DNA of 64,000 nucleotides from an uncultured Nitrospiraceae bacterium. Lineage in GTDB: Bacteria; Nitrospirota; Thermodesulfovibrionia; Thermodesulfovibrionales; SM23-35. Shown here in pieces: positions 8,155-12,205 of this stretch. The notes under the pieces are model-generated. The model was not told where the DNA came from. It was given only the letters and a program-made list of their open reading frames with translations, and did no database searches. How positions within the stretch are numbered: position 1 is the stretch's first letter; each line of letters opens with the position of its first letter. The stretch is from contig CAVSHB010000003.1 in assembly GCA_963727775.1 (NCBI GenBank), positions 224,001 through 288,000 of the forward strand, written 5' to 3'. The position numbers and the translations under genes are program-made.

Positions 8155-8433
8155 ATGAAGAGAAAGACATATGTGCTTGACACGTGCGTCTTAATCGATG
8201 ATCCTGATATCTTTTTCAAGCTCGGCAAAAGTCAGATTATTATCCCCGGCGCAGTCATCAAGGAGCTTGACGGCCTAAAGAGAAGTTGGGATCCCGACAG
8301 GGCAAAGCCCGCCAGACAGGTTACGAGGATTCTCGACAGGCTGAGCAGACGCCAGGACATTAAATTGGGGGCCATAACATCTGCAGGCTCTATTGTGAGA
8401 ATATGCAACAGTCACACGGTAATCGATGACCTT
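8155..8433 (+). pseudogene. PIN-domain (PhoH-N/PIN_4-like) gene, 3'-truncated
   Basis: YVLDTCVLIDDP...IPGAVIKELDGLK; homology ends at VIDDL, then reads into the antisense of the second copy. Confidence 0.75.
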
Positions 8434-8706
8434 GTATTTGGTGCTTATTCTCACAGTGGACCCGGCATAAGTTTTAGCCCCTGTCGATATATCCTGACTG
8501 CTACCCAGCCGGTCAAGCATTCTGGATACTTTTCTTGCAGCTTTTGTCCTTGGTTCTTCCGGGTCGGGGTTCCTTTTAAGTCCGTCTATCTCTTTGATCA
8601 CCGCAGTCGGAATGATTATCTGATTGTCGCCGAGTTTGTAAAAAACATCCGGATCATTGATTAAGACACTTGTATCGAGTACATATGTCTTGGTTTTGTC
8701 TTTCAT
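8422..8706 (-). pseudogene. PIN-domain (PhoH-N/PIN_4-like) paralog, 3'-truncated
   Basis: YVLDTSVLINDP...IPTAVIKEIDGLK; GGAGG RBS; homology ends at KVID. Confidence 0.75.
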
Positions 8707-9744: not shown

Positions 9745-9773
9745 TTGACAAAGGTTAACGTGCGGGTTAACAT
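9745..9773 (+). promoter_or_regulatory. TA-operon promoter with GTTAAC-N6-GTTAAC operator
   Basis: TTGACA(9745)-17-TAACAT(9768); palindromes at 9754-9759 and 9766-9771. Confidence 0.65.
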
Positions 9774-9780
9774 ATCGCGA

Positions 9781-10137
9781 GTGGGTAAGACTATGAAATT
9801 TTACAGAATGGCTGACAGCAAATGCCTCGTGCAAGAATTTCTCGATTCGCTGTCCGGCAAGGTAGCGCAGAAAGTTGCATGGGTGCTGAGCCTGATTGAG
9901 GATCTCGATGTTGTGCCGGCGACATATTTCAAAAAACTCGTCAACACCGGGGAGATATGGGAATGCAGGATACAATTTGGCTCGATTGCGTACCGGATAT
10001 TCTGCTTCTTCGACGGCAATTCCGTTGTTGTGCTAACCCACGGATTTATCAAGAAGACGCAAAAGACACCTCAGCGGGAGATTGAGCGGGCTGAGGCTTA
10101 CAGAAGAGACTATTTGCAGAGGAGGACAAAGAGATGA
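9781..10137 (+). CDS. RelE/ParE-superfamily toxin (HigB/Gp49-like, DUF891-type)
   Basis: IWECRIQFGSIAYRIFCFF...LTHGFIKKTQKTP; toxin-first gene order; start 9781 (GTG) or 9793 (ATG). Confidence 0.88.
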   Translation: MGKTMKFYRMADSKCLVQEFLDSLSGKVAQKVAWVLSLIEDLDVVPATYFKKLVNTGEIWECRIQFGSIAYRIFCFFDGNSVVVLTHGFIKKTQKTPQREIERAEAYRRDYLQRRTKR

Positions 10138-10409
10138 GTGATCTGAAGAAATATATCCAGGAGAGGAAGAAGAAGGACAAAGCATTTGCCGCAGGTTATG
10201 ACGAGGGTTACGAACAACTGAAGATCGGCGTAATACTCAAGCAGGCCCGTGAGATTGCGGGACTGACACAGGAAGAGCTTGCCCATCGAATAAAGACCAA
10301 GAAAACCGCTATTTCAAGGATCGAGAACCATGCAGAGGATATCAAGTTGTCCACACTCGAGAAGGTGGCCCATGCCCTCGGAAAAAGACTGGAAGTGAAA
10401 ATCGCTTGA
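10134..10409 (+). CDS. XRE-family HTH antitoxin (HigA-like)
   Basis: AREIAGLTQEELAHRIKTKKTAISRIEN; ATGA overlap with the toxin. Confidence 0.9.
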   Translation: MSDLKKYIQERKKKDKAFAAGYDEGYEQLKIGVILKQAREIAGLTQEELAHRIKTKKTAISRIENHAEDIKLSTLEKVAHALGKRLEVKIA

Positions 10410-10539
10410 GGTCGCCGATCTATTCCTGCTGCTCATTGCAGCCAAAGGTTGCCAGGGGCGGCAGGGAAAAAGATCGAGGCTGTTAACAAGGCAAGGCTCC
10501 ACTTTTCACCTCCTACTGAACATATATGGTATAACGTTT

Positions 10540-10710
10540 AAGTGGATGGGTTTTACCTGTTCATCGAAGAGGCAGGAGGACGTGAGTTTCACCTGGGTCT
10601 GAGAACCCTTTTTGTAGTGTGTTCCCTGTCTCCCAAAGCCATGATAGGTTGGTTGGGCCTATGAGCCCTTGTCACAATGGAGGTTTGGTTGGGAGACGTT
10701 CCTGCCGTCA
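10540..10710 (+). ncRNA. Putative IS110 bridge RNA (target- and donor-binding loops)
   Basis: Two stem/internal-loop/hairpin modules; guides GTTTCACCT and GTAG, GGTTGGTT and GGAG match the element junctions; boundaries approximate. Confidence 0.75.
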
Positions 10711-10737
10711 CATTATAGATAAAAAGGAGGTATCGTC

Positions 10738-11931
10738 TTGTTTAAACAGTATGTAGGTATAGATGTATCCAAAGAATTCTCAACCGCTCAAGGTCTCGAT
10801 AACAATGGCAAGAAGCTCTTTTACTTAAGATTTACCATGAACGCTGAAGGGTTCTCTGAACTGTTAAAAGCGATGATGAAACACGCTCAGTGCATTACAG
10901 AGATAAGGGTGGCCATGGAGTCCACAGGGTGTTATCACATAAATCTCTTTTCATTTCTCTCTTCAGAGGGAGTTGCCTGTGTGGTAGTTAACCCTCTATT
11001 GATTAGTAATTTTGCGGGGCTGTCTCTGCGCAAGACAAAAACAGACAAGAAGGATGCCTTGATAATCGCTCAATTTCTGCTTTCCAACGAGAAGTCCCTC
11101 TCCGCGATAGCATTCTCACAGGATGCACAAGACCTTAAAGACCTCGCGAGAGAAAGAGAATCTCTGACAGTACTGATTGCCGGAATAAAGAACGATCTCA
11201 AGCGGCTGCTCCAGGGCACGTTTCCCGAGTTAGAAAAGCTCTGCGATCCGTGTGGGGAAACTATGTTGAATTTCCTCGTCCGGTTTCCTTCAGCGCGGTT
11301 GGTACGGACCGCGAAGAAGAGAGATATTGAGAAGGCACTTATCTGTCCCAATGAGAAACGAAAACGCGTTGCGGTTTCTGTTGACGACCTGATTGCAGCC
11401 GCAAAGACTTCTGTTGCATCACTCAGTGCCGCTAAGGAACTCATACTTTCAGAGAAGGTATCGACACTTCTCTATCTTCAGGGTAAGAAGGAGAGGATGA
11501 CCGACGTACTTATAGAGACTTGTGAATCATTGAGGATCGAGGAACTGGATATCATCAGATCCGTTGATGGCGTCAATAATATCACGGGCTCGACTTTCCT
11601 TGCAGAACTTGGAGACATCAATAATTTCACTTCATACAAGCATGTCATTGCGTTTGCCGGATTGGATCCTTCAATCCATCAATCGGGACAATATGAAGGA
11701 CACAGTACGATCTCAAAGCGTGGGAATCGCCATCTAAGAAGAGTTATTTTTCTAATGACACTCTGTGCCGTAAGAAGCAAGAATACCTTCAGAGAGTATT
11801 TTCTCAGGAGGAAACAAGAGGGCCTTCCTCCCAAAAAGGCTATCCTTGCAACCGCACATAAACTCATCAGGGTCATTTTCGCAATGCTTTCGAATAAGAC
11901 TCTCTTCAGAAAGGAGGTGGCTGCCCAATAG
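10738..11931 (+). CDS. IS110-family DEDD recombinase/transposase
   Basis: YVGIDVSK, MESTG, KTKTDKKDA RuvC-like DEDD residues; HQSG serine and ISKRGN in the C-terminal domain; AAGGAGG RBS before TTG. Confidence 0.95.
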   Translation: MFKQYVGIDVSKEFSTAQGLDNNGKKLFYLRFTMNAEGFSELLKAMMKHAQCITEIRVAMESTGCYHINLFSFLSSEGVACVVVNPLLISNFAGLSLRKTKTDKKDALIIAQFLLSNEKSLSAIAFSQDAQDLKDLARERESLTVLIAGIKNDLKRLLQGTFPELEKLCDPCGETMLNFLVRFPSARLVRTAKKRDIEKALICPNEKRKRVAVSVDDLIAAAKTSVASLSAAKELILSEKVSTLLYLQGKKERMTDVLIETCESLRIEELDIIRSVDGVNNITGSTFLAELGDINNFTSYKHVIAFAGLDPSIHQSGQYEGHSTISKRGNRHLRRVIFLMTLCAVRSKNTFREYFLRRKQEGLPPKKAILATAHKLIRVIFAMLSNKTLFRKEVAAQ

Positions 11932-12205
11932 TTGACTGATAACCATCACCGCGGCAAGTTCTCCGATTGTGTTTGTTTCCGGTAAAATGTGTTTAAAATC
12001 GTTAGCGTGTTTCATCCCATACTCTTCACGGACCAGTTCACGACGACCAGAGCTTGAAGCTCTAATGCAATTTGTTAGGCAATGGGATACTATTTGATAT
12101 AATAAAACAAACCAACCACAAACTATGTGTATCAATCTAAACAGTCATCAGCCTTGCTATGGATGTATGCACATGGCAATACGAAAGATGAGAAAAGGAG
12201 AGGGT

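Follow-up and report, generated by a model that had tools for sequence, protein, structure and literature searches.

The IS110 element of the window (the whole 64,000-nt stretch of DNA analyzed here, from an uncultured Nitrospiraceae bacterium) is very probably a bridge recombinase system of the IS621 type, with a guide RNA in its left end that chooses the insertion site. A sequence-only reading had recognized this architecture, and the ends, the core, the loops and the covariation between guides and flanks all bear it out. Judged by its sequence, the element is placed in the IS110 group (IS621-type) by its left-end RNA, its target and donor guides and its handshake bases. Systems of this kind have already been described and mined at scale, with bridge RNAs predicted for 85.7% of catalogued IS110s according to the available text of PMC11208160; the window element adds another example, and its clade may already be listed in the supplements of published surveys. 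The features are collected in Table 1.

Table 1. Features of the IS110 element and its insertion site (positions in the window).
Feature	Position	Strand	Remarks
IS110 element, core to core	10510..11937	+	sole full copy in the genome
Left target half-site, including CT core 10510-10511	10503..10511	+	8/9 fit to left target guide
Right-donor half, start of left end	10512..10516	+	conserved in relatives
Predicted extended -10 of circle-junction promoter, TG-n-TATAAC	10527..10535	+	missed by a consensus scan that requires a T as the sixth base
5' stem-loop of predicted bridge RNA	10542..10564	+	z -3.0; variable or absent in relatives
Target-binding module	10571..10630	+	left guide 10586-10594, hairpin 10595-10608, right guide 10611-10617, handshake bases 10618-10619
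Donor-binding module	10628..10697	+	left donor guide 10647-10654, hairpin 10655-10668, right donor guide 10679-10682, handshake bases 10683-10684
Conserved 3' hexamer	10701..10706	+	can pair with 10571-10576, closing a junction around both modules; competes with 10625-10630
Ribosome-binding site of recombinase (TTG start)	10724..10731	+	sequence
IS110 recombinase, 397 aa	10738..11931	+	family profiles, structure relatives, residue alignment
Right end: stop codon TAG, left-donor half, CT core 11936-11937	11929..11937	+	predicted circle -35 box 11932-11937
Right target half (poor guide fit) and ~106-bp repeat	11936..12041	+	paralogue (97%) on contig C1; other genomes carry uninterrupted homologues

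The comparison set has three sources: from genome contigs, the 80 best of 269 related loci, whose titles point mostly to Nitrospirota and deltaproteobacterial MAGs and whose proteins are 41-84% identical; from metagenomes, 100 loci chosen by a pattern from the target loop of the window element, and thus biased toward its guide type; and additional loci from related genomes. A profile search located the RNA region in 191 of 221 loci, and removal of repeated sites left 119 left and 84 right junctions. These relatives are kin rather than independent samples, one left junction (L152) is misparsed in the guide-flank dataset, and the tree was built by a quick method from 79 of the 84 rows. An extension of the set (9 of 317 genomes) returned mostly loci that were already in it. 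Viral contigs gave 0 matches to the loop pattern, and the Rfam search gave 3 chance hits and no family near threshold.

The non-coding left end comprises 226 nt (10512-10737). The right end lies just 4 nt past the stop codon; it closes with GACT at 11937, and GA follows. The CT core is repeated at 10510-11 and 11936-37, and there are no terminal inverted repeats. Five sets of multi-copy relatives (L031/32/47, L091-95, L048/49, L051/52 and L083/84), each with copies inside one genome, carry the same element in flanks that differ past the CT core on both sides. As the shared sequence runs up to the core and diverges beyond it, the ends at 10510-11 and 11936-37 are right. The comparison of other copies' flanks thus upholds the ends and core that had been read from the window, where the non-coding left end and every motif and coordinate given at that time are also found in the sequence. 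Alternative ends at an ACTGA repeat (10515-19/11935-39) were considered and rejected, since the shared sequence of the relatives starts only at the CT core. The stop codon is also the start of a conserved right-end motif, which is present at 76 of 84 right ends, with its partner motif at 109 of 119 left ends; these figures are partly circular, because ends were located by motif and 100 loci were picked by a pattern from the window loop.

Further full copies were not found in the genome, which has only an internal 196-nt fragment on contig C4. Genome comparison also revealed a 48%-identical family member on contig C1 (~1077760-1079430, minus strand, 48% protein identity). Its right end is broken just past the stop codon; ~200 bp beyond, there is a full right-end motif followed by a flank that fits its guide, an arrangement like that of an expanded element. 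The genome also contains several more multi-copy members of the IS110 family, with 24-31% protein identity. Searches of 61 and 301 genomes yielded no clean empty site, homology to the left flank in G023 extending only up to 10506. Reads across joined ends were absent from four sequencing runs, in which cover is sparse; one DNA contig starts exactly at 11936, but at a depth of 3 that allows no interpretation. Directly upstream of the element lies a pair of genes for a Gp49/RelE-like toxin and an HTH_3 antitoxin (9745-10409), and two opposed, mutually similar PIN-like ORF fragments can be recognized by eye at 8155-8706. On the other side, a short fragment at 12041-12110 is 97% like C1:309107-309176 and resembles, by eye, a piece of a resolvase gene.

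The recombinase combines an N-terminal DEDD domain (PF01548) with a C-terminal PF02371 domain, has a length inside the family range of 300-460 aa, and scores 239.9 bits against NCBIfam NF033542, 'IS110 family RNA-guided transposase', for which the cut-off is 140. Its only relatives among solved structures in the PDB are ISCro4 and IS621. D9, E61, D103, D106 and S316-G317 align with D11, E60, D102, D105 and S241-G242 of IS621, for which the catalytic residues are described in PMC11208158. By this alignment, the protein is a recombinase of the DEDD/Ser type with intact catalytic residues.

The folding energy of the left-end RNA is ordinary (z -0.83), and the structure is seen by comparison. In 75 sequences clustered at 92%, the two-module fold gives 97.9% paired cells, with two-sided changes in 13 of 24 pairs against 5.1 after shuffling, while slid registers score far lower; these changes and the coordinates confirm both the modules and the stem 10573-10583/10619-10628 that had been drawn by eye. 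With RNAalifold, the target stem and both hairpins reappeared, whereas the donor stem did not. In the window element, a 4-bp hairpin is also predicted at 10582-10592, where it covers part of the left target guide.

A detail that the sequence-only reading did not contain is a second closing helix, predicted from sequence, that involves the 3' hexamer. The 5' arm of the target module (10571-76) pairs with 10625-30 at 6/6 in 69 of 75 sequences, and with the hexamer at 10701-06 in 70 of 75, compared with 3, 0 and 9 for downstream control windows. In predicted folds of the full-length RNA, the outer pairing is favored in 69 of 75 sequences and encloses both loops in a three-way junction, whereas the inner pairing is formed in the predicted fold of the target module alone. 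Natural changes are balanced between the two: only the inner helix is broken in L102/103/109, L071 and L063, only the outer one in L022/159, L148 and L181, and the L107/108 lineage compensates both. The competing helices may act as a switch. The literature searched, in its running text, held nothing specific on a three-way or multi-branch IS110 bridge RNA, and an earlier description may exist elsewhere.

The left target guide matches the left flank at eight of nine positions, and among 20,000 random genomic 9-mers, 2.6% find a match at 8/9 in some part of the left end. This match is modest and the folding energy unremarkable; it is the covariation in relatives that lifts the bridge RNA above chance. 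Position by position, matches between left guides and their own left flanks number 550, compared with 420.6+-12.5 when shuffled among elements (119 sites), and those between right guides and their own right flanks 333, compared with 190.0+-11.4 (84 sites), with 0 of 5000 shuffles reaching the observed value on either side. With one site per distinct guide, the difference persists on the left (47 versus 28.1 shuffled, n=12, 1/5000) and on the right (50 versus 23.1, n=13, 0/5000). Covariation of guides with target sites had been set beforehand as a test of the idea, and both the left target guide and its flank match withstand it. The donor-loop handshake bases, the two that follow the right donor guide, likewise track target positions 6-7 (161 versus 135.5 shuffled, n=98, 0/5000), in line with the handshake pairing described for IS621 (PMC11208158), which the sequence-only reading did not mention.

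Target positions 5-7 obey the guide at 107, 108 and 114 of 119 left sites, and positions 10-13 at 78, 71, 70 and 71 of 84 right sites. Position 14 follows at 43 of 84, with 19 further wobbles, and positions 15-16 are at chance. The right target guide therefore reads positions 10-14, which makes it 7 nt long with the core and the target 14 bp long. The right guide GTAG (10614-10617) proposed earlier is present and covaries, but is too short at 4 nt. The predicted preferred target is GTTTCAC-CT-ACAAA, which would be read strictly at positions 5-7 and 10-13 and loosely at positions 1-4 and 14. Upstream of the guide-paired region, 12-13 nt before the core, target sites of relatives tend weakly toward a T followed by a G (63 and 54 of 119), perhaps reflecting a protein contact; the window site has the T. 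The right flanks of L098 and L187 start like their own left ends for 7 nt and then diverge, which makes them donor-like half-match insertion sites in nature.

In the window element, the left donor guide forms 5 Watson-Crick and 3 wobble pairs, and the right donor guide pairs at 4/4. At two of the left-donor wobble positions, many of 82 relatives have Watson-Crick pairs instead (52 and 27, respectively). Both donor guides hold up as originally identified, in that rare changes in the donor are accompanied by matching changes in the guide (L055/L088, L089, L037, and the core CA in L045/L067); one relative, L087, breaks this tracking. Such covarying events are few because the donor is nearly invariant. 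It is scarcely credible that the left-end structure is merely regulatory, as an element of translation control or a protein-binding site, with targeting encoded in the protein. Guide types and protein clades are indeed correlated by descent, as this model would have it, but flanks track the guide letters base by base over 12-13 distinct guides, and individual right-guide types turn up more than once, in branches of the tree that are separate from each other.

The right flank of the window element does not fit its guide. Of 37 sites with its type of right guide, 33 read CTAC; the window reads CTGA, and with three of positions 10-13 mismatched, it is the second-worst of 84. This flank is part of an undescribed ~100-bp repeat that is found in the window (11936-12041) and in L027, L037, L211, L212, L213 and L219. 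The repeat precedes a PF00589/PF13495 tyrosine recombinase in L212 and may, as far as sequence can tell, be the end of a mobile element; the L219 copy has 16 nt in common with the left flank of L209. Six uninterrupted homologues of the repeat align from the core, with CT in five, GA next in four, and CAC before it in four, and their sequences further upstream are unrelated in all six cases. These homologues behave as stand-ins for an empty site and confirm the core. The tolerated mismatch or later change that the earlier reading had offered for CTGA is thus right about the mismatch, which it understated, and unlikely to be right about the change.

We lean slightly toward insertion of the window element on a match of the left half only. 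One-arm half-match insertion has been reported for IS621 in vitro (10.64898/2026.08.31.748434); in vivo, to judge from its available text, that preprint could not tell left-target-only matches from full ones. Such landings must be rare: positions 10 and 11 are both missed by only 4 of 84 right flanks, and double mismatches are poorly tolerated in IS621 screens (PMC11208160). It is very improbable that the right flank once matched and then mutated, or that the guide changed after insertion. The C1 paralogue has an A at position 10, and both guide types are found among close relatives. Yet the homologues already read CT followed by GA in four of six cases and by AC in none, which largely refutes a later mutation of the flank; GTAG is present in every one of the nearest relatives (87-89% left-end identity), and three substitutions would be needed although the gene of the element is intact.

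A possible, if rather unlikely, alternative is that the target loop which guided the insertion of the window copy belonged to a sister element and acted in trans. All members of the clade have the same donor address, and in the IS621 complex the two loops come from two RNA molecules (PMC11208158). The best-fitting of 67 distinct guide pairs belong to sisters with the right guide TCAG: over 11 positions, the guides of L209 (86% identical left end) mismatch the window site once and those of the L037 type twice, compared with three times for the element's own guide, and the right flanks of L037 and L041 open with the same 7-9 nt as that of the window. Moreover, positions 10-11 are missed at 3 of 5 sites in the window subclade, compared with 1 of 32 sites outside it that have this guide (Fisher p 0.005; 0.027 if the window is left out). 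However, two of the three misfit sites come from one element lineage, and with 67 guides on offer, some better fits are expected by chance. The genome, which is 96.8% complete, contains no TCAG-type sister, and its sole other family member, on C1, mismatches 6 of 11 positions. Where two guide types do share a genome (L031/32/47 and L051/52), all five sites follow their own guide. On natural trans-mobilization of IS110, the running text of the literature searched contained nothing specific. Improbable, too, is a later recombination that, after a normal insertion, joined the right end to new sequence, so that the flanks stem from different sites. In its favor, the left flank is homologous to G023 only up to 10506 and the right flank to C1 only from the core onward, the right flank itself combines, as a mosaic, two segments that lie 9.5 kb apart on C1, and flexible boundaries have been reported (10.64898/2026.08.14.744561, in the text available). 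But the homologues, all unrelated just upstream of the core and four of them with CAC like the left flank of the window, share the boundary at the core, which therefore needs no rearrangement.

Following the work on IS621, a model for the activity of the element can be outlined. The ends would join into a circle, and the joint would create a sigma-70-like promoter for an RNA of ~170 nt that starts near 10540. The target and donor loops would be bound by two recombinase dimers, and the top strands would be exchanged at the core with the help of the handshake bases. When the ends of the window element are joined, they read TTGACT, 18 nt and TG-n-TATAAC; sites this promoter-like (5/6 and 5/6, spacer 16-18, TG) occur at 78 of 6.86 million genome positions. 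Both ends are available for 50 elements, of which 39 have TATA at a spacer of 17-18 and 35 have the TG. The conserved spacing supports function as a putative promoter. The boxes and the spacer first proposed are present in the window, but the -10 box has a final T in only 1 of those 39.

A more far-reaching model, which we regard as doubtful, gives the bridge RNA of this Nitrospirota/Desulfobacterota clade two states, in which one 5' arm closes either a stand-alone target loop or a three-way junction around both loops. Since a single donor address serves the entire clade, elements would exchange free target loops, and the window copy would be a sister-guided insertion. If the competing helix does switch between target-only and full-length RNA, this would bear on the open question of what truncated RNAs do, and trans-guided insertion, if it is natural, would bear on the open question of off-target insertion. 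Independently of this model, the element adds a well-decoded clade of bridge recombinases, distant from IS621/IS622 and with naturally long right guides. With at least 12 natural guide settings on one donor, the clade offers a ready orthologue for genome-editing screens, among thousands already predicted.

Among known systems, the IS1111 group is characterized by sub-terminal inverted repeats of 7-17 bp and an RNA in the right end. The window element has the same catalytic domains, but its longest sub-terminal inverted repeat is 5 nt and its RNA lies in the left, not the right end, so that on the two features examined (sub-terminal repeats and RNA position) it falls outside this group. With IS621 of E. 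coli (available text of PMC11208160 and PMC11208158), it has in common the DEDD RuvC-like and Tnp-serine domains, the CT core, the RNA in a long left end, left guides to the bottom strand and right guides to the top strand, handshake bases, and a donor more conserved than the target; the circle-junction promoter of IS621 has a predicted counterpart in the window. The IS621 protein is distant (328 aa in the PDB chain versus 397 aa in the window, E 3e-16), and target and donor differ. The window element also differs in its naturally 7-nt right guide, extended guides being mentioned in the IS621 paper, in the short distance between stop codon and right end, and in having almost no linker between modules and a predicted competing long-range closing helix, whereas the IS621 consensus RNA has separate stem-loops (PMC11208160). 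ISCro4/IS622 (PDB 9t56; 10.1101/2025.05.14.653916, available text) has the same architecture, with 14-base target and donor recognition and handshake guides; its protein is distant from the window recombinase (E 5.9e-18). CazIS110-1 (10.1101/2025.10.25.684509, available text) has a two-loop RNA of ~170 nt, like the one predicted here, and an abundant RNA that contains the target loop only, a form that the two competing helices of the window RNA would accommodate.
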